Below, piece after piece: positions 13,633 through 58,007 of a DNA stretch of 64,000 nucleotides. Positions within the stretch are counted from its first letter, which is position 1; each line of letters opens with the position of its first letter. The stretch lies in assembly GCA_964372135.1 (NCBI GenBank), contig CAYJPS010000002.1:1979-65978 (forward strand), written 5' to 3'. Origin of the DNA: an uncultured Treponemataceae bacterium (GTDB lineage Bacteria; Spirochaetota; Spirochaetia; Treponematales; Treponemataceae). Under the pieces are notes generated by a model. It saw only the letters and a list, made by a program, of their open reading frames with translations, was not told the DNA's origin and did no database searches. A program made the position numbers and the translations under genes.

Positions 13633-13705
13633 TCGGAACGACAGGATTCGAACCTGCGACATCCTGGTCCCAAACCAGGCGCGCTACCAGCTGCGCTACA
13701 TTCCG
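13633..13705 (-). tRNA. tRNA-Pro (anticodon TGG), no encoded CCA
   Basis: The minus strand folds by hand into a cloverleaf: CGGAATG TA GCGC AGCTGGTA GCGC G CCTGG TTTGGGA CCAGG ATGTC GCAGG TTCGAAT CCTGT CGTTCCG A. The T-loop is TTCGAAT and the anticodon loop is TT-TGG-GA. Confidence 0.9.
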
Positions 13706-13789: not shown

Positions 13790-14074
13790 AATTCGTAATT
13801 CGTAATTCGTAATGAAATTAATGCTTCATTCTGATTTTTGCGTCTCCCACCAAGACTGGTCATTTTTAAATCCACAGATTTCACAGATGACGCAGATTTT
13901 TATTTTTGAGTATTGAATTTTATTGCGAAAACCACCACAATAGTAAAAGCAAAAATAATTATATTTTTGACATGTTTTAGTCTTCATTTTATCTAAAAAT
14001 TTCTGTAGAATTTTCCAGTAAAAATCCCCAGCAATCTGTAAATACCTTTCCGCTAATTCCTAATTACAATCCCC
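13790..14074. repeat. family 1 composite repeat element, copy at tRNA-Pro/ileS intergenic
   Basis: In order: 3 tandem AATTCGT heptamers (13790-13810), cattctgattttt, ctcccaccaagactggtcat, atccacagatttcacagatgacgcagatt, an internal ~110 nt similar to 45.43-45.55 kb, then aatctgtaaa...ctaattcctaatt. Confidence 0.7.
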
Positions 14075-36257: not shown

Positions 36258-37481
36258 CTACCCTATCTTATCCTGAATAAATTTTTCATCTATATGATTC
36301 CTGTCTACAATAAACCCTGTTAAATTTGTTAAAAACGAAACTTCGTCTGCTTTTTTGAAATTGCGCGGAACTTTTTGTCCATCAGTAATATATGATACAG
36401 ATTTTTGCTTTTCATCTAAAACACTAATTACGGTACCCATTGTGTCAGTTTCATCCAACTTTGTAACGATAACGGAGTCGTATCCAAATGTCTCATACTG
36501 TTGCAAAATTGTTCTAAGATCATTAGCTTTTGTTGGCGCAGAAACAGTTAAAAATGTTTTTAACTTGTGTGCTTTTAAATCTAACTTTGTTCGCAATTTT
36601 GCTAAACTATCATAATCTTTAGGACTATGACCTGCTGTATCTATCAGTATTACATCAACATCCCTACCATACAGCGTTAACAAATTTTGTAAATCCTCTA
36701 TTGAATCTGCATATTCAACAGGAATCCCCATATGCAAGCCATAGGTTTCCAGTTGTTCTTTTGCTTGAACTCTAACATTATCAATTGTAATGAGGCGAAT
36801 ACTTAAACCTTTTGGAACACCGACATTCCCAATACCACTAAAATACGCTGCAAGCTTTGCTATGGTAGTTGTTTTACCAATACCAGTTGGGCCAACAAGT
36901 ACAATGATTTCTGGTCGCTCAGTTGTGGAAATATCTGTAATCTGAATTGATTCCCCTATCCAGTCAATTACCGTTTTTTGAATTAAGTCGAAGTCTTCTA
37001 AATCATCAATAGAAAATTCTTTTTTAATTCGTTCCGTAATTTTTTTAATATACTCAGGAGTAAAATCATTCCCCTCTAGCAATTGCTTAATTTTCACGAT
37101 TGAAGCTGGTTCATCTTGCTGATGCATATATACGTTATCAGTAATATGACTTCGTAGCTCTTGTATTTCATCCAAAATAAGCTTCATTTGTGGACTTTGA
37201 ACATTTTGATTTGCCTCAAGAATTTTAGTTCTTTCTTCGTTAAAATCCATTGGCTGCGTAGTTGGCAAGCCTTGAAATGGGCGTTTTTGTTCTGTTAATA
37301 AGGGTACGTACCAAACTGTGCATTGCTTTCGCTTAATAGGTCCGAAAATCTTTTCATACGACTCTTGTTTTCGAACTATTTTATAGTGCTCTCCGTAAAG
37401 CTCTTTTATTCGCTTTCTGCATGCTTCTTCTGTGTCTGCAATTATTTGAATAGGTTTTTGTGTAAATGCATCAGTTACCAA
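36258..37481 (-). CDS. flhF: flagellar biosynthesis SRP-type GTPase FlhF
   Basis: GPTGIGKTTTIAKLAA, DTAGHSP and TKLDET G-motifs. It overlaps the flhA stop. Confidence 0.9.
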   Translation of the reverse strand: MVTDAFTQKPIQIIADTEEACRKRIKELYGEHYKIVRKQESYEKIFGPIKRKQCTVWYVPLLTEQKRPFQGLPTTQPMDFNEERTKILEANQNVQSPQMKLILDEIQELRSHITDNVYMHQQDEPASIVKIKQLLEGNDFTPEYIKKITERIKKEFSIDDLEDFDLIQKTVIDWIGESIQITDISTTERPEIIVLVGPTGIGKTTTIAKLAAYFSGIGNVGVPKGLSIRLITIDNVRVQAKEQLETYGLHMGIPVEYADSIEDLQNLLTLYGRDVDVILIDTAGHSPKDYDSLAKLRTKLDLKAHKLKTFLTVSAPTKANDLRTILQQYETFGYDSVIVTKLDETDTMGTVISVLDEKQKSVSYITDGQKVPRNFKKADEVSFLTNLTGFIVDRNHIDEKFIQDKIG

Positions 37482-39552
37482 CTTTTATCTCTCCTAGATT
37501 TTCTAGCTTTATATCATTTGTTATTTCCGGAACCGAGATTACCACTAAGTTTGGCATTTCTCTTTCTGTGCTTGCTTTTACTAAGGCCCTTGCCTCTTCT
37601 GGACATAAAATAATTGGCATATACCCCTTGCCTTGTGAAAGTGCCACAGAAGAACTTAGGGCTGTAATCCAAGCACGTTGCAACATTGGATCTAAAGCTG
37701 CTATTGGACCATTAACTGTTTCAACTTTACTTTCAATTAATTTCTGTAAAAAGTCTTGGGCTACAGTTATTACATGCAATGTTTTATTTTCATCTGCATA
37801 TTGAAGACATATTTGCCTACCAAGCGCTTGACGAACTTTTTCAACAAGAATATCGGCTTTTTTTGTAACGGCACCAAAATCGGCGATAGTTTCAAAAATA
37901 ACAACCATATTTCTAACAGAAACCTGTTCTCTAAGCAGTCCTTGTAACACTTTTTGTATTTCGCCAATAGTAAATATTTTTGTTGCCTCTTCGACAGCAG
38001 TGGGATATTCTTTTTTTAGAGTATCAACAATTGACTGAACTTCTTGCCTTCCAAGAATTTCTGCTGCATGAGCTTTTATAAGCTCAGTTAAATGAGTTGC
38101 GATAATTGTTGGAGGGTCTACTACAGCATATCCTGCACGCTCTGCCCTATCCTTGTCTGCTTCTGAAACCCATATTGCGGGCAATCCAAATGCTGGATCT
38201 GTTGTTGATTCTCCTTGTAATTCTTCTGAAACCGTTCCTGTATTCATGCACATATATGATCCCATTCTAATACGGCTGGAACCAACTTCTATGCCTTTAA
38301 CTTTAAAACTATATGCATTTGGCTCTATGTGCATATTATCCGTAATACGAATTCTCGGAACAACAAGACCTAAATCTAGGGCAAACTCACGCCTGATTCT
38401 TGTTACACGCTCTAAGAGTTCTGCACCTTTTTCTTTGTCTACTAATGGAATCAAGGCTAAGCCCAATTCTAACGAAAGTGGATCTAATGGCACTACAGGA
38501 CTTATTTCTGCAATTGGTGTACCTTGAGTTTGTTGCATTTCTTTTTCTTTATTAAGTTTTGCTTCAAAAGATGCTTTTTCAAGTGACTGTAATCTTCTAC
38601 CAATAAAAAAGAGCGCTACGCCTATCGGTGTAAGTATATACCACGGAAAACCAGGAACCAATCCCATTAAGGCCATAGTAACACCTGAAACATAAAAAAC
38701 CCATGCATTTTGCGAAAATTGTTTTTGTATATCTGTTCCAAGAGTTGTTTTTCCATCGGACACTGACCGTGTAACAATAATACCAGTTGCAACCGAAATA
38801 AGGAGTGACGGGATTTGAGATAAAAGACCATCGCCAATGGTAAACTTTGCGAATATTTGAATAGCTGAAGCAAAATTTTCACCACTTGTCATACCAACTA
38901 TGACTCCACCTATAAGGTTGATAAGGGTTATAAAAATGCCTACTTTAACGTTACCCGAAACAAATTTCGTTGAACCGTCCATAGAACCATAGAAATCTGC
39001 TTCTCTTTGCACATCCGCTTTTCTAATTCTGGCTTCTTCTTCGGTAATTGCTCCTGAGTTATACTCTGCTTCAACAGCAGCTTGTTTCATAGGCATCGCA
39101 TCTAAGGTAAAGCGCGCTGCTACTTCCGCGATACGAGTAGCTCCCTTTGTAATAACGAAAGTTTGCACCGCAATAAGAATAATAAAGATAACCAGCCCTA
39201 TAACAAGACCCCTTGTTCCACCGGTTCCTACAACGAATGTTCCAAACGCGGTAACAAGTTGTCCCTTAAAGTCTGTACCATCCATAAGGATAAGACGTGT
39301 TGAAGACACATTAAGTGCTAAACTGAATACAGTAGAAACAAGCAATACTGTTGGAAAAGAGGAAAAATCTATTGCACGGGGGGTATACATAACTATTAAC
39401 AAGATTATCAGCGCAATCAAGAGATTAAGTGACATAAATGTATCAAGTAATATTGGTGGAAGAGGAATAATCAACATCATTATAACCGTAATTACTACAA
39501 TAGCAACTACTAAGTCTGAGCTTCTTCCAAAACGCTGTGCGACGTCAGCCAT
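37471..39552 (-). CDS. flhA: flagellar type III export apparatus protein FlhA
   Basis: 693 aa with an N-terminal 8-TM domain containing FPTVLLVSTVFSLALNVSSTRLIL and ITKGATRIAEVAARFTLDAMPMKQ, plus a cytoplasmic C-terminal domain. GGTGGG RBS. Confidence 0.97.
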   Translation of the reverse strand: MADVAQRFGRSSDLVVAIVVITVIMMLIIPLPPILLDTFMSLNLLIALIILLIVMYTPRAIDFSSFPTVLLVSTVFSLALNVSSTRLILMDGTDFKGQLVTAFGTFVVGTGGTRGLVIGLVIFIILIAVQTFVITKGATRIAEVAARFTLDAMPMKQAAVEAEYNSGAITEEEARIRKADVQREADFYGSMDGSTKFVSGNVKVGIFITLINLIGGVIVGMTSGENFASAIQIFAKFTIGDGLLSQIPSLLISVATGIIVTRSVSDGKTTLGTDIQKQFSQNAWVFYVSGVTMALMGLVPGFPWYILTPIGVALFFIGRRLQSLEKASFEAKLNKEKEMQQTQGTPIAEISPVVPLDPLSLELGLALIPLVDKEKGAELLERVTRIRREFALDLGLVVPRIRITDNMHIEPNAYSFKVKGIEVGSSRIRMGSYMCMNTGTVSEELQGESTTDPAFGLPAIWVSEADKDRAERAGYAVVDPPTIIATHLTELIKAHAAEILGRQEVQSIVDTLKKEYPTAVEEATKIFTIGEIQKVLQGLLREQVSVRNMVVIFETIADFGAVTKKADILVEKVRQALGRQICLQYADENKTLHVITVAQDFLQKLIESKVETVNGPIAALDPMLQRAWITALSSSVALSQGKGYMPIILCPEEARALVKASTEREMPNLVVISVPEITNDIKLENLGEIKVGN

Positions 39553-39632
39553 ATTCCCACCTACTGTTTGATATAGGATAAACCCCCATTTACCCTTGTA
39601 AGACGAGTATAAATTCCGACCTACTTTAAATA

Positions 39633-39641
39633 ATTATAACA
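39633..39641 (-). promoter_or_regulatory. possible extended -10 promoter for flhA
   Basis: Minus strand TGt-TATAAT about 80 nt upstream of the flhA ATG, at the inner edge of the inserted island. Confidence 0.35.
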
Positions 39642-39706
39642 TAGTTTGAAAATAAAATAAAGTAAAAAGTGAGTTTTTTTGTAAAAAAAGTGATTTTTTT
39701 TAGGGG

Positions 39707-39967
39707 TATCCGCAAGAATGACGCAAATTTTTTTATTGCGAATACCACTTGCCTATCATTCTGATTTTTTCACCACATCTATCCCCGTGAAGAATCTCCG
39801 TATCGGCGTAGAAAATTTTTATCTTTGCTTCTACCACTAAGATTGGTCATTATTTAATTCCTAATTCCCAATTCGTAATTAATTAAAATCTGCGGTTCCT
39901 TTTTCTCCCTCGCTTTACCCACCACCATTAGGAATTAGGCATTTATAATTTCTAATTAATTTATTCG
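39707..39967. repeat. family 1 repeat mosaic (C-like, module A copy 1, module B copy 1)
   Basis: atccgcaagaatgacgcaaattt. Module A at 39743-39850. Module B at 39856-39939 (aattcct aattccc aattcgt aattaatt aaaatctgcggttcctttttctccctcgctttacccaccacc attaggaattagg). Confidence 0.8.
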
Positions 39968-39978
39968 TCCTAAAAAGC

Positions 39979-40851
39979 TTAAAAGGAGGAAGTATTAAAA
40001 TAACGGATAGCACGAACGGCTTCTGTTTTGTCTTTCTCTCCGTAGGTCAGAGCGCCAGAGTAGAAATTCTGCCCATACATAAGATTATCCTGTTGCTCAG
40101 ACGACGACCAAAGAGTTCGAGTTTCGAATATATATTCTGGCACTCTTGCATTTGTGTATGCCTGTTGAAGTTCTTCTATTGTCGGCAAATACCAATCCGT
40201 AAAATCACCACCATCATAATCCTTTGCAATACTGATACTGTTGGAGTTATGGGTTTCATGAAACATACCACTTGCTTGATACCAATTATACTCACCTAGA
40301 TTATCACTTATTTCTTTATACTCACTGGTAGTACTGTCTGCATAAAAAATTATACCGCCGCCCGGACCTGTGTCACCTATCTTATACACGACAGTGAGCA
40401 ATGTAGCTATATACAAAGAATTTTCGCCTTCTACCATTTTTTTAGTTTTAGAGCGACCTTCTTTTATCTCACCATCCTGTTCTACTCGCACCTTTGCATA
40501 CACTATTTTTCCTACGATTGCAAGGTTGTCAAATATAACACTTTCATCTTCTTTTACTACCAGCGTTTTACTTATAATTACACTATCATTACCTGCATTG
40601 TGTAAACTTAACGTCATCTCAATACCATCGTCGTCAAAATCTATTGAACGTGTAAGGCCTATATTTTCATGACCACTTCCATTATAAGAGGCAGCTTGTA
40701 CACTGTCGTTTTTTAAAAATTCTTCAAGGGCGCTTTTACTTACCTTAAAGGTTATGTCAGTTGTTTCTTTTACGCTCCAAAGTGAATCGCAACTTATTAG
40801 TACGATTACTGCCATTACAAAAAGGGCTACTAAAAATAGTCTTTGTTTCAT
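39979..40851 (-). CDS. lipoprotein, shared N-terminal module plus DUF1566 (Lcl C-terminal)-like domain
   Basis: MKQRLFLVALFVMAVIVLISCDSLW has lipobox LISC. The C-terminus GPGGGIIFYAD...FTDWYLPTIEELQQAY...LWSSSE...VRAIRYF follows the DUF1566 pattern. GGAG RBS. Confidence 0.65.
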   Translation of the reverse strand: MKQRLFLVALFVMAVIVLISCDSLWSVKETTDITFKVSKSALEEFLKNDSVQAASYNGSGHENIGLTRSIDFDDDGIEMTLSLHNAGNDSVIISKTLVVKEDESVIFDNLAIVGKIVYAKVRVEQDGEIKEGRSKTKKMVEGENSLYIATLLTVVYKIGDTGPGGGIIFYADSTTSEYKEISDNLGEYNWYQASGMFHETHNSNSISIAKDYDGGDFTDWYLPTIEELQQAYTNARVPEYIFETRTLWSSSEQQDNLMYGQNFYSGALTYGEKDKTEAVRAIRYFNTSSF

Positions 40852-40888
40852 ATTTTCTCCAAAAAAACTTTTTACCTATTTTTTATAT

Positions 40889-40916
40889 ATTATGTAGTAT
40901 ACCGCATGACTGTAAA
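40889..40916 (-). promoter_or_regulatory. sigma70-type promoter of lipoprotein gene a
   Basis: Minus strand TTTACA (40911-40916), 16 nt, CATAAT (40889-40894). The same arrangement is conserved at 42884-42911. Confidence 0.5.
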
Positions 40917-40980
40917 TTATTCTACATTTTTGCAAAATATGTCGTAGAATTTTACATTTTTTACGATTAAAGAACGCAAC

Positions 40981-41654
40981 TACCACTTGCCTGTCATTCT
41001 GATTTTTTCACCACATCTATCCCCGTGAAGAATCTCCGTATCGGCGTAGAAAATTTTTATCTTTGCTTCTACCACTAAGATTGGTTATTTTTAAACCACA
41101 GATTATTTTATAATTCCTAATTCGTAATTAATTAAAATCTGCGGTTCCTTTTTCTCCCTCGCTTTACCCACCACCATTAGGAATTAGACATTGCGAATCA
41201 GAAATTAATCTACCACCAAGATTGGTCAGGTGTTATCCACAGATTACACAGATTACGCAGATTATTATCTGTCGCATTTTGAACTACTCTTACATTTACC
41301 ACAAAAAATTTATAAGTCAAAACTATTTATAGTTTTGTCACGAATTTGTCTTTACGCTTTGTTAAAAATTACATAGCACGTTTCAATAGAAATCCCATTA
41401 ATCCTTTAATCTGTGGTTAAAACTTCTCCCTCGCTTTACTCGCACCATTAGGAATTATGCATTGCGAATCAGGAATTAATCTCCCACCAAGATTGGTCAG
41501 GTGTTATCCACAGATTATTTTATAATTCCTAATTCCTAATTCCCAATTCGTAATTAATTAAAATCTGTGGTTCCTCTTTCTCCCTCGCTTTACCCGCCAC
41601 CATTAGGAATTATGCATTGCGAATCAGGAATTAATCTCCCACCAAGTCTGATTA
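40981..41654. repeat. family 1 repeat mosaic: module A copy 2, three module B copies and one full composite element
   Basis: Module A at 40981-41088 (2 mismatches versus 39743-39850). Module B at 41112-41229, 41407-41499 and 41524-41654. A C/D interior lies at 41230-41406. Confidence 0.85.
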
Positions 41655-42848
41655 AGGCGCAGCAGAACGAGCCACTCGAAAACCAACGGACGCATCCCGA
41701 AAGGTAGGCACATTGTTGACGCGGTTGCTTACGGTCAAATTATTTTCAGTATTGTTCCAATGTCCGCCACGATACACACGGTTCGTAGAGCCAGCAAGCG
41801 GCGTGTCATAACACCATTCCCACACATTACCACTCATGTCATACAAGCCTAAGGCGTTGGCATTTCCGGTTTTTTCAGTCGGTAAACTTTCATTCCTTCC
41901 TGCTGTTCCAACTATATGTGTTGTAGCATTTGCATTATCCTTATACCATGCATAGCTTCCTAAGTCAGTGTCTGTACCAGCATAGATGGTACGTTCTTTT
42001 GCTGCTCCATCAAGACTAAACCCACCATGTCCAGCTGCGTATTCCCATTCCCTTTCTGTTGGTAAGCGGTAGCCTGTTCCGCCTATTATGGTTCCGTCTG
42101 ATTCATAATAAGGGCTTAAATTTTCTTTTTCACTTAGCGTATTACAAAACTCTACCGCATCATTCCAACTTACATTATATGCAGGTTTATTATCTCCAAG
42201 TCCTTTTTCCAAAGTTGGGTCAGCTCCGGGCCATGTTCCCATTACATCTAGCCACTGACCCTGCGTTACCTCGGTTTCACCTAGGTTAAAATTTGCGACT
42301 ATGACGTTTTCTTGTAGAGCTACATTACCACCAGCTGTTCCTTGAAACATGTATGTGCCACCTGGTATGCCTATTAACTTTCCAACCGTTGAACTTTCAA
42401 TATCTATAGGTACTAAGCCACCAAATACAAACTCAAGTCTATTAAGTCCTTCTTTTACAACAATGGAATCAGATTTTTCAATTCGTGGCTTGTATCCCTC
42501 GTGCATAAACTCTATTTGTGCATACACGGCTTCCCCCACAATGTATAGTTTTTCAAATGTTATAGTGTCGCTAAGAGAATCTCCAAGGTACACTGTTTGT
42601 TTAGCCCAAACCTCATCGGTATTTGCATTGTGTATAGATACTGTGGCACTAATGCTTGTATATAGTCCTGCACGAGACATGCTTTGCACGCTTGCCCTTT
42701 CTTCTTCAAATTCCTCGAGCCATTCTTGCGGAATGGTAAAGCTAATTTCAACTGGCTTTTCTGCTTTATGATCCCAGAGCGAATCACAACTTGTTAGTGC
42801 GAATACTGCTATTACAAAAAGAGACACTAAAAATACATTTTGTTTCAT
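41652..42848 (-). CDS. lipoprotein, shared N-terminal module plus formylglycine-generating-enzyme (FGE/SUMF1)-type C-lectin-fold domain
   Basis: MKQNVFLVSLFVIAVFALTSCDSLW. The C-terminal domain has GYRLPTEREWEYAAG, LGLYDMSGNVWEWCYD, RVYRGGHW and VGFRVARS. Confidence 0.8.
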   Translation of the reverse strand: MKQNVFLVSLFVIAVFALTSCDSLWDHKAEKPVEISFTIPQEWLEEFEEERASVQSMSRAGLYTSISATVSIHNANTDEVWAKQTVYLGDSLSDTITFEKLYIVGEAVYAQIEFMHEGYKPRIEKSDSIVVKEGLNRLEFVFGGLVPIDIESSTVGKLIGIPGGTYMFQGTAGGNVALQENVIVANFNLGETEVTQGQWLDVMGTWPGADPTLEKGLGDNKPAYNVSWNDAVEFCNTLSEKENLSPYYESDGTIIGGTGYRLPTEREWEYAAGHGGFSLDGAAKERTIYAGTDTDLGSYAWYKDNANATTHIVGTAGRNESLPTEKTGNANALGLYDMSGNVWEWCYDTPLAGSTNRVYRGGHWNNTENNLTVSNRVNNVPTFRDASVGFRVARSAAP

Positions 42849-42883
42849 ATCTTCTCCAAAAAAAAATTACATATTTTTTATAT

Positions 42884-42911
42884 ATTATGTAGTATAACGT
42901 ATTACTGTAAA
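42884..42911 (-). promoter_or_regulatory. sigma70-type promoter of lipoprotein gene b
   Basis: Minus strand TTTACA (42906-42911), 16 nt, CATAAT (42884-42889). It lies within a ~118-nt block shared with 40852-40970. Confidence 0.5.
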
Positions 42912-42980
42912 TTATTCTACATTTTTGCAAAGTATATCGTAGGAATTTTACACTTTTTAGGGTAAAAAAATGACACAAAC

Positions 42981-43245
42981 AGCCACCACTAAGACTGGTC
43001 ATTATAATTCCTAATTCACAATTCGTAATTAATTAAAATCTGCGGTTCCTTTTTCTCCCTCGCTTTACCCACCACCATTAGGAATTAAGCATTGCGAATC
43101 AGGAATTAATCTCCCACCAAGATTGGTCATGAATCATCCGCAAGAATTACGCAGATTTTTTTTCGAAGGCGTGGACTGTTGGATTTGCTACGAAGATTGT
43201 TGTGATTGTATAAAGGTTTTATCCGCAAATGTACGCAGATTTTTA
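42981..43245. repeat. family 1 repeat mosaic (junction motif, module B copy 5, two C-like motifs)
   Basis: agccaccactaagactggtcat. Module B at 43006-43130. atccgcaagaattacgcagatt and atccgcaaatgtacgcagatt. Confidence 0.8.
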
Positions 43246-43334
43246 CTTTTTCATGTAGTAAAAACTTTTTTATGCGCTACGAGGATTTGGTTTTTTAAGT
43301 GAGGTGTTGTTTTTCGAGTACAAAAAAGGCACGT

Positions 43335-43375
43335 TTCAAAATACAATTGCAAGGGCAAGCACCGTGCTGTACCCT
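43335..43375 (-). terminator. possible terminator after the LRR lipoprotein gene
   Basis: Imperfect hairpin agggcaagcac-cg-tgctgtaccct (43352-43375). On the minus strand it is followed by tgcaattgtattttg. Confidence 0.35.
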
Positions 43376-43389
43376 CACAATTGTTATGC

Positions 43390-45201
43390 TTACTTTTCTT
43401 GTATCTTTGCTGAGTGGACACTCCAACCTTGTGCACCTTGATAAGCATCACCACTACCTGCAGGTACATAAATAGTGGTTAAAGCTGTAGCTCCATCAAA
43501 TGAGTCAGTTTGCAAAGCAGGAGGAACAGGATCCCTAAGGGTAACTGTTTCTAAACTAGTACAGCCCATAAAAGCAGACTGATTAATACTTTTAACACTA
43601 GAAGGAATATCGATACTTGTTAAACCTGTATTCTGAAATGCAAAATTATCAATACTTGTAACATTAGTGGGGAGAATTATGCTTGTTAATTTTTCACAAC
43701 CCACAAATGCTCTTATACCTATGCTTGTAACACTTGAAGGAATTATTACATTAGTTAGTCCTGTACAACCTGAGAAAGTGGCCTCTCCAATACTTGTAAC
43801 CCCTAAAGGAATTTCTATACTAGTTAGTCCTGTACAACCTGAAAAAGCTGCAACACCAATATTTGTGACACTAGAAGGTATATCTATATTTGTTAACTCT
43901 GTACAATCTGCAAATGCACTACTACCAATACTTGTAACACTAGAAGGTATATCTATACTTGTTAAACCCGTATTCTTAAATGCACTACCACCAATACTCG
44001 TAACTCCAAAAGGAATAGCAAAGTGTTCATCAGTTTTAGAGGGCAGATACAGAACTAAGCTTTTATTTTTACCTTTTGTGTAAATAACATTATCAATTGC
44101 TTCAAACGTAGCATTTTTTGGATGTACAGTTATTTTTTGTATTCCTGAATCCTGCACAATAAAACTACCAATACTTGAAACAGTACTGGGTATACTTATC
44201 TCTGTTAAACTCGTGCAATTATAAAATGCATAATCCCCAAGAATTTTAAGACCTTCATTTAGAATAACACTCCTAAGGTTAGGCGTATTTGAAAATGGCT
44301 CATCCTTAAGTTCCACAATAAACTCGGAAAAAATGATGCTATTTATTGCTGTATTGTCTTCAAAAGCAAAAGTACTTATAGAAGTTATTGGTTTACCCTT
44401 ATATACAGGGGGTATTATAACATCTGCATCACTATCAGTATTATAACCAATAGTTAGTTCATCTGGTCCATTATCCTCAACCTCTAATTCCGTGTACTCC
44501 CCGGGGTTTGCCCATCGTGCATAGAGGGTATCGCTTTCGGTTACTTCGTATGGGAACACTACCCAGTCGTTTCCATTTCTTGTTTTTGTCCAACCTAAGA
44601 AAAACTCTTTGTCACTTGGAACAGTCATAGAAGCACTTTCGCCTGGTAGTGTCGCTTTTTCTAAGTGTAATACCGATTGAGTATCCACTGCATCGATTCC
44701 ACCGTTTGAATCAAAACTTAATTTCCAAGTAACTTTTTCTGCTTCTCCCATGTCAAACGTAACGGGATTATTACCTTCAACTACCGTAAGAGGGTCTGAT
44801 TTTCTACTTCTTGATAAGTGCCCATATTGCGTAAGCTCTACTTGTACATACACGGTACTTCCCACAATATACAAAGGTTGAAAGCGTATGCTTTCATTAA
44901 GATTGTTTCCAAGATTTACCGCTTGCTCTGCTAAAACGGCTCCTGTTTCTGCATCTTGAATGGATGCTTTAGCGGTAATGCTTGTGTTTACACTTGCCCT
45001 TTGGAGGCTTTGCCCACCTGAAGCACGTTGCGCCTGTTGTACAGCCTCTGCTTCTTCTACAAAAGAATCTAGCCACTCTTGAGGAATAGTAAAGCTAATT
45101 TCAACCGCTTCTTTATTTTCGTGTTCCCAAAGTGAATCGCAACTAAAAAATGCAAACACTGCCATAATAAAAAGAGACACTAAAAATGCTTTTTGTTTCA
45201 T
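43390..45201 (-). CDS. lipoprotein, shared N-terminal module plus BspA-type leucine-rich-repeat (LRR_5) surface protein
   Basis: I set the start at ATG 45201 (GGAGGA 4 nt upstream): MKQKAFLVSLFIMAVFAFFSCDSLW. The C-terminal half holds ~10 tandem ~23-aa repeats IPSSVTSIG.SAF.GCT.LTSI. The 51-codon extension in the ORF track lacks support. Confidence 0.8.
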   Translation of the reverse strand: MKQKAFLVSLFIMAVFAFFSCDSLWEHENKEAVEISFTIPQEWLDSFVEEAEAVQQAQRASGGQSLQRASVNTSITAKASIQDAETGAVLAEQAVNLGNNLNESIRFQPLYIVGSTVYVQVELTQYGHLSRSRKSDPLTVVEGNNPVTFDMGEAEKVTWKLSFDSNGGIDAVDTQSVLHLEKATLPGESASMTVPSDKEFFLGWTKTRNGNDWVVFPYEVTESDTLYARWANPGEYTELEVEDNGPDELTIGYNTDSDADVIIPPVYKGKPITSISTFAFEDNTAINSIIFSEFIVELKDEPFSNTPNLRSVILNEGLKILGDYAFYNCTSLTEISIPSTVSSIGSFIVQDSGIQKITVHPKNATFEAIDNVIYTKGKNKSLVLYLPSKTDEHFAIPFGVTSIGGSAFKNTGLTSIDIPSSVTSIGSSAFADCTELTNIDIPSSVTNIGVAAFSGCTGLTSIEIPLGVTSIGEATFSGCTGLTNVIIPSSVTSIGIRAFVGCEKLTSIILPTNVTSIDNFAFQNTGLTSIDIPSSVKSINQSAFMGCTSLETVTLRDPVPPALQTDSFDGATALTTIYVPAGSGDAYQGAQGWSVHSAKIQEK

Positions 45202-45267
45202 ATTGTCCTCCAAAGTAACTACAATAAAGTATAACGCAGTACTGAAATAAATTCCAGATTTTGGACA

Positions 45268-45276
45268 ATTATAGCA
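45268..45276 (-). promoter_or_regulatory. possible extended -10 promoter of lipoprotein gene c
   Basis: Minus strand TGc-TATAAT about 65 nt upstream of the ATG. Confidence 0.35.
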
Positions 45277-45357
45277 TAGAAAAATAAGTCTATCATGTGC
45301 CATTTGGCACATTTTTAAAGGAATTTTGCACTTTTTACGGTAAAAAAATGACACAAA

Positions 45358-45630
45358 CAGCCACCACTAAGACTGGTCATGTTTTATCCACAGATTACAC
45401 AGATTAGGCAGATTACAACTATTGCGTATTCGACAACCCTAACATCTGCCACCAAAATAGTAAAAGCAAAACTAGTTATAGTTTTGTCACGAATTTGTCT
45501 TTACATTTTATTAAAATTTCTGTAGAACGTTCCAATAGAAATCCCACTAATCTGTGCAATCTGTGGTTCCTTTTTCTCCCTCGCTCTACCCGCACCATTA
45601 GGCATTTCTAATTCGTAATTAGGAATTAAT
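45358..45630. repeat. family 1 composite repeat element abutting and overlapping the flhB stop
   Basis: In order: gccaccactaagactggtcat, atccacagattacacagattaggcagatt, a ~120-nt interior similar to 41290-41400 and 13920-14030, aatctgtgcaatctgtggttcctttttctccctcgctctacccgcaccattagg, then a heptamer arm. Confidence 0.8.
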
Positions 45631-46725
45631 TGTCTTTCCTTTCATTGCATAGATCTTGCTTAAAATCGTGGCCAGTACCGTATAATATGTTTCAGGAATA
45701 ATATCGCCAACTTCTACATTGGCATACAAGGCGCGCGCCAAGGGTCGGTTTTCTATCATTGGAACATCGTTCTCTGTTGCTAAGCGTTTAATTTGTTGCG
45801 CAAGTTCATCCTGACCTTTTGCGGTGACCATTGGTCCCTGCATTGTATCTCTTTCATATAAAATTGCAATAGCAAAGTGAGTCGGGTTGGTAATAATAAC
45901 ATCTGCTTTGGCAACATTTTCTCTAATGCTATTTTGTAACAGTTCCCGCATAAATTGCTTTAGCTTACTTTTTACAAGAGGATCCCCTTCAAGGGTTTTA
46001 TATTCTTCTTTTACTTCTTGCTTAGTCATTTTTAATGAATCAATAAATTGCTTACGCTGCACTAAATAATCCGGAATAGCAATGCCCATAAAAATAAAGG
46101 TAGCAATTAATAATATTTTTGCCGCCATTTGCGCTATGTGCGTAATTCCTTGCCATAGGTTTTGATCTAAGAGCGACAGTAGCGTGGGTAAATCCGAAGA
46201 AATAACTGTATAAGATGCTATAAAAATAACGACTACTTTTAATATTGATTTAAATATATTAAATACGCCTTCAAAAGAAAACATTGTTTTTTTAAAATAT
46301 TCGCCAAATTTGGGAATAATTTTAGAAAACTTTGGCTCTATAGGTTTTGTTGAAAAAATAAAACCTCTATTTTGAATTAGATTTGCTAATATAGCACCAA
46401 TAATCGCGGTAATAACTATCGGAGTTACCATTCTAATTAAATAATAAAAAAAACCGTAAGCAAGACTCGCGTTTATTTCTGCTGTAGTGCTAATTTGAAA
46501 ATAGTATAATAGGATTTCAAGAAAATTTGTAAACAACCATGGAGCTAGAATAATCAGCGCAATAGTGGGAAAAAGCATTACAAGAGCAGCACTTAACTCT
46601 TGACTTTTGGCAACTCGGCCTTCTTCTCTAGCTTTACGAAGCTTATGCTCGGAAGGATCTTCTGTTCGACCTTCATCTTCTGCTGCAAACCATTGTAAAT
46701 CTAAATCTTCTGAATAAAAACTCAT
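45619..46725 (-). CDS. flhB: flagellar type III export apparatus switch protein FlhB
   Basis: 368 aa with the N-terminal EKTEDPSEHKLRKAREEG-type motif (GRTEDPSEHKLRKAREEGRV), 4 TM helices and the autocleavage site NPTH (VIITNPTHFAIAI). Confidence 0.95.
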   Translation of the reverse strand: MSFYSEDLDLQWFAAEDEGRTEDPSEHKLRKAREEGRVAKSQELSAALVMLFPTIALIILAPWLFTNFLEILLYYFQISTTAEINASLAYGFFYYLIRMVTPIVITAIIGAILANLIQNRGFIFSTKPIEPKFSKIIPKFGEYFKKTMFSFEGVFNIFKSILKVVVIFIASYTVISSDLPTLLSLLDQNLWQGITHIAQMAAKILLIATFIFMGIAIPDYLVQRKQFIDSLKMTKQEVKEEYKTLEGDPLVKSKLKQFMRELLQNSIRENVAKADVIITNPTHFAIAILYERDTMQGPMVTAKGQDELAQQIKRLATENDVPMIENRPLARALYANVEVGDIIPETYYTVLATILSKIYAMKGKTINS

Positions 46726-57162: not shown

Positions 57163-57425
57163 TTCCTAATTTTTGCGTATACCACAAAGACTGGTCATTA
57201 TATATCCACAGATTAAAGGATTACGCAGATTTTTATTTTTGAGTGCTTAAAATTTATTATGCTCACCACAAAAAACTAAAAAAATTATATTATTATTGTA
57301 AAGGAATCTCACTATGAAGATAACATCTCTGTAGCACTGTCAAATAAAAATCCCATAAATCTGTGTAATCTGTGGTTCCCTTTCTTCCTTGCTCTACCCA
57401 CCCGCCAGATTCGTATTCATGAATT
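57163..57425. repeat. family 1 composite repeat element between the convergent helicase and 57428 genes
   Basis: In order: taattcctaatt (contains the helicase stop), taccacaaagactggtcat, atccacagattaaaggattacgcagatt, an interior, then aatctgtgtaatctgtggttccctttcttccttgctctacccacc. Confidence 0.7.
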
Positions 57426-57427
57426 GT

Positions 57428-57868
57428 TTACTTAACCTGGCTATACAGTCCTGCAATTTCTTCTCGCCATGGAGAAGGTGAATCGCGATCTTCCCAATCT
57501 ATTGTCTTTACAATGGAAAACTTACGCAAGTCATGAGGGTTTTCAAAATGCACTACTGCAAAGCGCCCTTGCCCAATATAAGTGATTTTTTGCCCTTCTT
57601 CGAGATTTTCAGTTTCATTTAGTTTAGAGAGCACACAATCAAAATGAATTGCACCGCCTGTTTTTTTGTCTACCAAGGCCGAAACAAGTTCATGAATTGG
57701 GCGAGAACAATATTCACATGTTATAACATTCTCTTTATGAAGCCGAATAGCTTCTGAGTTCTCTGCAACAAAGGCTACTTCTGAAGTTTTTTCTAGTCGT
57801 TCTTTTTTTTGATTGTCGCGTCGATTTCTATTGTTCCACTTTTTCTTATGTTTCTTAGTATGATCCAT
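57428..57868 (-). CDS. hypothetical protein with a basic N-terminus and a Cys/His cluster
   Basis: Start at ATG 57868 (AAGGA upstream): MDHTKKHKKKWNNRNRRDNQKKE..., then CEYCSRPIHE...HFDC, a possible zinc ribbon. Confidence 0.5.
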   Translation of the reverse strand: MDHTKKHKKKWNNRNRRDNQKKERLEKTSEVAFVAENSEAIRLHKENVITCEYCSRPIHELVSALVDKKTGGAIHFDCVLSKLNETENLEEGQKITYIGQGRFAVVHFENPHDLRKFSIVKTIDWEDRDSPSPWREEIAGLYSQVK

Positions 57869-58007
57869 TGCGTTTTCCTTATTTATTGCTTGTAATAAAA
57901 TCAGCGGACTGCGAGTCAAAATCATGCATCAATGTATAATATCTATTTCATTGATAACATGATTTTATTACACAGCATTCGCAACCTCAAGGAAACACTA
58001 CATACAA

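Follow-up and report, generated by a model that had tools for sequence, protein, structure and literature searches.

The 64,000-nucleotide (nt) stretch analyzed here, which we refer to as the window, is part of contig C2 of a metagenome-assembled genome (MAG) from the family Treponemataceae. This host assembly (G000) comprises 2.94 Mb in 367 contigs at 35.5% G+C, has a marker-gene completeness of 83%, and encodes an FlhA protein with 75 to 76% identity to those of Treponema lecithinolyticum and related oral treponemes. Between flhA and flhB, the window holds an island made up of three lipoprotein genes (of the Lcl_C, FGE-sulfatase, and BspA-type LRR kinds) and about 2 kb of repeats (Table 1).

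An earlier note on this DNA had described one of these repeats, Module B, as inverted arrays of AATTCNT heptamers around a conserved core, and had listed seven copies, including diverged ones. All seven exist, and shuffled sequence is devoid of such matches. More specifically, a 34-nt core pattern, with up to 3 mismatches allowed, was found at 39887, 41136, 41562, 43037, and 45558 (each match carrying at most 1 mismatch) versus 0 times in 100 shuffles, and a double-heptamer pattern, AATTCNTAATTCNTAATT, was matched 11 times in the window versus 0.02 matches expected. Comparisons were made with a genus set of 12 genomes (the host and 11 others), all of them MAGs that are 59 to 83% complete, break at repeats, and comprise 150 to 390 contigs each, and with an outgroup sample of 29 genomes from other genera of the same family and order. 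Cores were located genome-wide by means of nhmmer, using a profile built from the full copies.

Table 1. Repeats and associated features; positions are those of the window unless a contig is named
Feature	Position	Strand	Parts	Neighboring gene end
flhB-flhA island	39553..45618	-	6.07 kb between flhA (37471-39552) and flhB (45619-46725)	
Module A	39747..39827	+	about 81-100 nt, hairpin-bearing, directly left of the D of c1	
Module B copy c1	39833..39960	+	D 39833-39849; left heptamers 39856-39880; core 39887-39926 (first 9 nt are one 9-mer unit); degenerate right arm to ~39960	Lcl_C lipoprotein gene (39979-40851, minus strand), whose stop codon c1 follows at 16-19 nt
Module B copy c2	41071..41228	+	D 41071-41087; 9-mer unit CCACAGATT 41096-41104; left heptamers 41112-41129; core 41136-41175; right arm 41176-41208; D 41212-41228	
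Element X	41237..41416	+	left inverted end (9-mer array) 41237-41268; 124-nt interior with AT hairpin 41274-41397; right inverted end finishing AATCTGTGG 41408-41416	
Module B copy c3	41408..41499	+	diverged core 41408-41451, attached to element X; right arm 41452-41480; D 41483-41499	
Module B copy c4	41508..41654	+	9-mer unit 41508-41516; four left heptamers 41524-41555; core 41562-41601; right arm 41602-41634; then truncated D	stop codon (41652-41654) of the FGE-sulfatase lipoprotein gene (41652-42848, minus strand) lies inside the truncated D
Module B copy c5	42985..43129	+	D 42985-43001; left heptamers 43006-43030; core 43037-43076; right arm 43077-43109; D 43113-43129; then variant 9-mer end ATCCGCAAGAATTACGCAGATT 43136-43157	
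Composite c6	45363..45632	+	D 45363-45379; left 9-mer array 45388-45415; X interior 45424-45546; right 9-mer array 45548-45566; core 45558-45597; right heptamers to 45632	final codons of flhB and its stop codon (45619-45621) come from the heptamers
Composite c7	57181..57420	+	D 57181-57197; 9-mer unit 57206-57214; X interior 57243-57354; right 9-mer array 57357-57375; diverged core 57367-57405	30 nt beyond the stop codon of a 165-aa ORF (57428-57925, minus strand)
Nuclease cassettes	C164:1632-2090; C32:1317-1775; C63:6489-6984		inverted 9-mer arrays on both sides	

Makeup of Module B and its companion modules

Read in the orientation of the window, the units of Module B follow one another as D, AATTCNT heptamers, a single 9-mer, a pyrimidine-rich core of about 35 nt, inverted heptamers, and D. 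The two to four left-arm heptamers reported earlier are borne out in the Module B copies, and the motif said to close the right arm is real as well. This motif, (C/A)CCACCAAGATTGGTCA, which we named D, is a short interrupted palindrome (ACCA-N7-TGGT(CA)) found at 39833-39849 and in seven other window copies. D also precedes the left arm, and most Module B copies are therefore bracketed by direct D copies. In c2 and c4, the heptamers stand alone between single 9-mer units, one of which is missing from c1 and c5. The first 9 nt of the core (AATCTGYGG) equal one unit of the 9-mer arrays, and TGGTGG (gene strand) is common to D and the start of the core. Over 45 nt, the cores of c1, c2, and c5 are identical, and that of c4 is 93% identical to these; the corresponding values for the diverged cores are 91% (c6, 45558), 78% (c3, 41409), and 71% (c7, 57367).

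The copy at 41407-41499 had been taken for a 5'-truncated one. What we found at its left is a complete element of about 180 bp with inverted 9-mer-array ends (element X; Table 1), and the same left neighbor is present at 45558 and 57367. The inverted ends of element X (27 nt) are 85% complementary. Genome-wide, X amounts to about 37 MITE-like copies of about 180 bp. The spacing from CCACAGATT to the next AATCTGTGG is 161 to 173 nt in most of the approximately 37 cases, i.e., a tight MITE-like size class, and the end 9-mer occurs 72 and 75 times on the two genome strands. The 9-mer arrays (CCACAGATTACACAGATT, up to 78 copies), together with AATTNNN heptamer arrays, constitute the commonest 14-mers in the genome. 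Inside X lies an AT-only 9-bp hairpin (41318-41337, 45467-45486, and 30 other genome copies) that exists in three variants. Two of its positions are fully compensated (A-T replaced by C-G in 7 copies and by G-C in 8), and half-changed copies are absent, indicating that this palindrome is either under selection or repaired as a hairpin. About two thirds of X elements adjoin a recognizable core and the rest do not; the core almost always adjoins the 9-mer unit CCACAGATT. Adjoining tRNA-Pro (13633-13705) are one more X copy (13913-14028) and an array of AATTCGT heptamers (13790-13814).

Clustering of the module hits revealed a recurrent order (window orientation), namely, Module A, D, 9-mer end, X interior, inverted 9-mer end, core, and heptamers. 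D is present in 51 genome copies versus 1 in a reversed-sequence control. Module A, with 24 genome copies, carries a 10-bp stem (GATTTTTTCAC..GTGAAGAATC) and usually lies beyond D at the far end of the composite; within the island, it is duplicated at 40985-41065 together with D and the start of Module B (95% identity). We rejected a DnaA-box reading of TTATCCACA, which is part of the left 9-mer end, as its 54 genome occurrences versus 48 in the reversed-sequence control represent no enrichment. A variant 9-mer end (ATCCGCAAGAATTACGCAGATT, followed by a T-run) was seen at 39708-39734, 43136-43162, and 43222-43246, as well as at the same locus in genome G007.

Dispersal in the genus and position at gene 3' ends

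The family of which Module B, a real DNA repeat, is a member consists of small mosaic repeats that are restricted to the genus and located just after stop codons. A profile scan of the whole genome and of related genomes, which the earlier note had asked for, found copies in both: about 39 cores are spread over the 2.94 Mb of the host assembly on more than 25 contigs, many of them at contig ends, and related modules occupy more than 100 loci. Matches were obtained in 9 of the 11 other genus genomes versus 0 of the 29 genomes from other genera. Thus, the family is dispersed and restricted to the genus rather than specific to the island, and plain local duplication, which the earlier note would have favored had neither further copies nor covariation turned up, cannot be the whole story. 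The many copies at contig ends further indicate that the genus genomes assemble poorly because of these repeats. An exact search of metagenomes for a 27-nt core gave 0 matches.

None of the 39 cores lies inside an open reading frame (ORF), i.e., all are intergenic. Based on crude ORF calls (at least 100 aa, greedy selection), on which all gene-end statistics rest, and with the island copies being non-independent data points, the right-arm side of the core faces a gene 3' end in 28 of 36 cases (P = 0.0012); 22 cores lie at most 80 nt from a stop codon, and 8 overlap one. Likewise, strict heptamer arrays at most 40 nt from 3' ends were sense in 34 cases versus antisense in 9 (P = 1.7e-4). Element X alone displayed no orientation bias (18 versus 14). 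On the gene strand, the order is constant: stop codon, heptamers, purine-rich core, and CCACAGATT. An AATTCCT array, as read from its sequence, offers TAA in all three frames within 21 nt, and the stop codons of flhB, trpS, and the FGE lipoprotein gene are supplied by the repeats. Gene 3' ends, stop codons included, are rewritten by this family.

Orthologous loci differ in what they carry. The lipoprotein island is specific to the host genome and absent from 8 genus genomes, in which the flhB-flhA spacer measures 108 to 375 bp. A repeat element with a core is present in this spacer in G000, G003, G004, and G001, and absent in G002, G008, and G011. As for genes, the spacer is a hot spot, with three lipoprotein genes in G000 and one in G007; the latter (C11:24400-27000) is of the BspA-type LRR kind and has the same signal-peptide region.

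The region downstream of trpS was compared using TrpS, which is 93 to 97% identical across the genus, as the anchor. At this site, a canonical GC-rich terminator and no repeat are found in G010, and a repeat is missing from G001 as well. Four AT-only heptamers are present in G006, G011 shows just a heptamer hairpin, and in G004 and G007 arms enclose a degenerate insert. In G000, the same outer arms enclose the core, a 9-mer end, a nuclease gene, another 9-mer end, and D; the first 17 nt of the outer arms are identical in G000 and G011. We found neither a clear target-site duplication nor a near-identical pair of empty and filled sites for Module B: the direct D copies (17 nt) that flank c2 and c5 differ at 2 of 16 to 17 positions, D is itself dispersed, and the orthologous spacers (flhB-flhA and trpS) are too diverged for a target-site duplication to be defined.

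Nuclease cassettes and the unit of spread

Three end-to-end spacings in the host genome are 449 to 486 nt long, and each encloses one ORF of 123 to 124 aa that matches PF13366 (PDDEXK_3, E about 1e-41) and TIGR04256 (GxxExxY). No further GxxExxY PD-(D/E)XK nuclease genes are present in the assembly. The three, of which the one on C164 codes for 123 aa at 1677-2048, are co-oriented with the upstream host gene (e.g., directly after trpS) and have no obvious promoter of their own. The cognate gene of the repeats appears to be this GxxExxY nuclease, which is carried inside the larger family members. The earlier note had proposed looking for a RAYT-like transposase; the corresponding domain (Y1_Tnp, PF01797) gave 0 matches in the 83% complete assembly, and control genomes gave matches.

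Between the first CCACAGATT and the last AATCTGTGG, the cassettes on contigs C164 and C32 share 92% identity, whereas identity in their flanks, including the core, drops to 39% and 29%. The recently spread unit thus extends from 9-mer end to 9-mer end, and the core lies outside it. The pairwise divergence of X was also uncorrelated with that of the adjacent core (Mantel r = -0.04, P = 0.63). Together with the flank identities, this result rules out joint spread of X plus core and identifies core, heptamers, and D as a layer outside the recently spread unit that often lies beside such units, with the core varying independently. The sharp end-to-end boundary of identity could stem from gene conversion between inverted ends instead of transposition.

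Within the genus, the GxxExxY gene was detected in 2 of 12 genomes (G000 and G004), as against 10 of 12 for the repeats, indicating that the nuclease is not needed for the repeats to persist, although these counts are tempered by the incompleteness of the MAGs (59 to 83% complete) and their breaks at repeats. One GxxExxY gene of G004 also lies between inverted arrays of short units. Across 301 Spirochaetota genomes, PF13366 genes occur in 65, in 1 to 9 copies each and in some cases decayed. At 29 Spirochaetota GxxExxY loci, the flanks are inverted arrays of 8- to 10-nt units (CACAGAG, CGCAGAG, CGCAGAT, and others), and their median inverted-repeat score was 15 versus 8 in shifted controls (P = 3e-13). 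Gene-less arms were found 97, 52, and 368 times in three genomes (G074, G091, and G127), each of which has a single such gene.

The 18-nt end motif of the present family, AATCTGTGTAATCTGTGG, is present in exact form in 43 viral-labelled IMG/VR contigs, compared with about 2 expected by chance (a rough estimate), and one 29.7-kb contig (64% G+C) carries 11 copies of it. As the 43 contigs range from 34 to 67% G+C, the arm motif is common to very different organisms. Module B, X, and a close homolog of the nuclease are absent from all 43. Among solved structures, no relative of the nuclease was found by sequence, and PF13366 is listed as of unknown function in the searchable literature (PMC3424549). 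Our literature search returned no description of a GxxExxY gene combined with palindromic arrays, none of GxxExxY function, and nothing on Treponema MITEs of this kind.

Possible roles of Module B and its place among known repeats

The Module B family appears selfish and seems to mark where short mobile elements come to lie. We assign a probability of roughly 0.55 to the reading that Module B is a cargo-less mosaic repeat serving as a preferred docking flank for 9-mer-ended elements. Module B would then be the smallest, cargo-less member of a nested palindromic repeat family, in which the layout on the gene strand runs from the stop codon through heptamer array, purine-rich core, inverted 9-mer end, cargo, and 9-mer end to D and sometimes Module A. 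Three states of the cargo are seen: it is missing or consists of a heptamer array (Module B), it is a non-coding piece of 130 nt (about 37 copies), or it is the 123-aa nuclease gene (3 copies). Core and heptamers would act at the DNA level, as the preferred flank or docking site beside which 9-mer-ended elements may arrive by insertion or by recombination end to end, possibly with the GxxExxY nuclease as mediator; the heptamer arms would be a by-product able to form a hairpin. As a side effect, gene 3' ends would be remodeled, and homology may have let lipoprotein cassettes accumulate between flhB and flhA. The repeats mark spots at which surface-lipoprotein genes have accumulated, even within the flagellar export operon.

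A more specific scenario is possible, though we would bet against it: the heptamer/core/D platform may be where a REPIN/RAYT-like system built around the GxxExxY nuclease specifically lands or recombines. Here, the nuclease would recognize the 9-mer arrays and place or exchange cargo beside the core, behind host stop codons, the cargo would ride on host transcription, and the trpS series would represent stages of colonization. If the nuclease-docking reading is true, it would provide the first function for a large orphan protein family. The window is a well-resolved case of an apparently undescribed pairing of a GxxExxY nuclease gene with palindromic repeats, to which it adds an orthologous series in one genus, a sharp end-to-end boundary of spread, and an extra docking layer, and these three render the function of the GxxExxY family testable.

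We consider it unlikely that Module B is instead a co-transcribed 3'-UTR element whose heptamer-arm hairpin ends transcription or protects mRNA, comparable to REP/BIME and ERIC in enterobacteria. Such a role agrees with the fixed place after stop codons and the co-orientation with the upstream gene, and also with the trpS locus of G011, where the heptamer hairpin, followed by ATTGCTTTTT, stands where G010 has its GC-rich terminator. The compensated X interior hairpin points the same way, as does c5, in which the arms form a continuous 18-bp stem with G-U pairs in the gene-strand (minus-strand) RNA at positions where the plus strand has A-C mismatches (c5 fold, -34.5 kcal/mol, z = -2.15). However, this G-U asymmetry comes from a single lineage of near-identical copies, and the island copies have modest fold z-scores (-1.2 to -4.4), with the better-folding strand varying from copy to copy.

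The arms themselves also argue against a role as a hairpin. Of the arm complementarity claimed earlier, the inverted heptamers are present in the island copies, but the complementarity is imperfect (ungapped inverted-repeat scores of 11 to 16). The long hairpin that the earlier note envisaged is not a property of the family, since inverted heptamers lie on both sides of the core in only about 6 of about 39 cases, i.e., in four island copies and C24, and weakly in C32. For the part shared by 35 copies (right arm, core, and 9-mer), RNAalifold gave no consensus structure (mean fold z-score, -1.07), and the compensatory-change test proposed in that note thus had nothing to act on. A promoter and terminator scan placed no site on any Module B copy, with counts at shuffle level. 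An intrinsic terminator was rejected on this basis and because the stems are AT-rich and no T-run (U-tract in the RNA) follows the stem in the island copies.

A structured noncoding RNA was likewise rejected, given the lack of both a covariance-model match and a conserved fold: Rfam returned only tRNA at the gathering threshold and nothing at E ≤ 1 over 39550-45650. The repeats form a genuine class, in keeping with the statement that they could not be assigned to a known one. What is conserved in the core, given the lack of an RNA fold, is thus its primary sequence (AAT-GTGGTGGGTARAGCGRGGAAGAA..GGAA, gene strand). We also dismissed the possibility that the core is coding; a short minus-strand ORF is readable, but its ATG is unconserved and copies differ by indels.

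More doubtful still is the proposal that the heptamer arrays are iteron-like protein-binding or contingency repeats, in which slippage in unit number tunes the neighboring surface lipoprotein genes. Left arms of 2, 3, 3, and 4 heptamers in otherwise near-identical copies are what such slippage would leave, the neighboring genes do encode surface-type lipoproteins, and both the short palindrome D and a core conserved as primary sequence could suit a protein-binding site. Yet the arrays lie 3' of genes, whereas the island promoters (TTTACA-16-CATAAT) are elsewhere, at 40916-40889 and 42911-42884; the units within one array differ (AATTCCT, AATTCCC, AATTCGT), making slippage harder; and the same arrays follow the housekeeping genes flhB and trpS. 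Iterons proper are direct repeats of about 17 to 22 bp at an origin or rep gene, whereas the units here are 7 nt long, form inverted arrays, and recur at about 39 gene ends, with no rep gene beside them and no origin or replication gene nearby within the window. The iteron-like array raised in the earlier note is thus unlikely, given that the copies are found at an origin nowhere but at chromosomal gene ends by the dozen. Module B is best read as neither a structured RNA nor an iteron array.

Equally improbable is simple local segmental duplication without function or mobility of its own. As a full account, it is refuted by the approximately 35 additional cores, which are distributed over more than 25 contigs, by the matches in 9 of 11 genus genomes, and by differing presence and absence at orthologous sites. 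It stands only for the origin of the island copies: the four full island cores are 93 to 100% identical to each other versus 65 to 85% for other copies, no other genome copy comes near that identity, and Module A, D, and the start of Module B were duplicated along with promoter and signal-peptide blocks (about 80% identity for the latter two). Given this block duplication inside the island, its four near-identical copies are local segmental duplicates.

Several known systems come close to Module B. The family resembles REP/BIME and REPIN-RAYT (REPtrons of Proteobacteria) in its extragenic, multi-copy palindromic units that are combined in mosaics with other short motifs, in its tens to hundreds of copies that lie mostly after genes and can be co-transcribed, and in its lineage-specific sequence. 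As in REPtrons, one or a few small enzyme genes lie between inverted copies of the same repeat. Unlike in REPIN-RAYT, there is no Y1/HUH transposase here, the enclosed gene encoding a GxxExxY PD-(D/E)XK nuclease instead; unlike REP, which is a single 20- to 40-nt palindrome, the arms are arrays of 7-nt and 9-nt tandem units; and unlike in REPtrons, the enzyme gene was detected in only 2 of 12 genus genomes.

Terminal inverted repeats, as in MITEs, are present in element X, and in Module B inverted arms are restricted to the island copies and C24. As for an autonomous partner, the only gene between the same ends is that for the 123-aa PF13366 nuclease, which is no known transposase (Y1_Tnp was searched, with 0 matches). 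Correia elements (Neisseria), BOX (pneumococcal), and BrickBuilt (Porphyromonas gingivalis) are modular small non-coding elements that are intergenic and fragment assemblies. By description, the family shares with them terminal inverted repeats, a tight size class (X, about 180 bp), and a variable number of short modules. Unlike in those elements, we found no clear target-site duplication and no autonomous partner with a recognized transposase (Y1_Tnp searched), and Module B is bounded by direct D copies and has heptamer arrays as arms. The cyanobacterial STRR sequences are intergenic arrays of tandem heptanucleotides that have small dispersed repeats within or next to them. The likeness, again by description only, lies in the intergenic heptamer arrays with nested small repeats, whereas unit sequence (AATTCNT) and phylum differ.

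Two further candidates were rejected. Integron arrays have one imperfect palindrome per cassette, with RYYYAAC...GTTRRRY ends, and an IntI integrase. An integron attC or cassette array was set aside on inspection by eye, as several repeats stand between genes, each gene has its own promoter, and GTTRRRY ends are absent; it is also disfavored by copies that follow housekeeping genes. The second was a link to diversity-generating retroelements, given the position of Module B at the 3' ends of the Lcl_C and FGE genes. Such retroelements typically target C-type-lectin folds of the kind that the Lcl_C (DUF1566-like) and FGE-sulfatase domains adopt. The reverse transcriptase domain RVT_1 gave 0 matches in the 83% complete assembly, and the repeat also follows flhB and trpS.

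Finally, the design of GxxExxY cassettes is seen in the host genome, where 3 of 3 genes lie between inverted arrays and gene-less arms occur as well; Module B has a single 9-mer unit only. Unlike other GxxExxY cassettes, those described here have an extra outer layer of heptamers, core, and D, which is located at gene 3' ends, outside the recently spread unit, and Module B corresponds to that outer layer without cargo.
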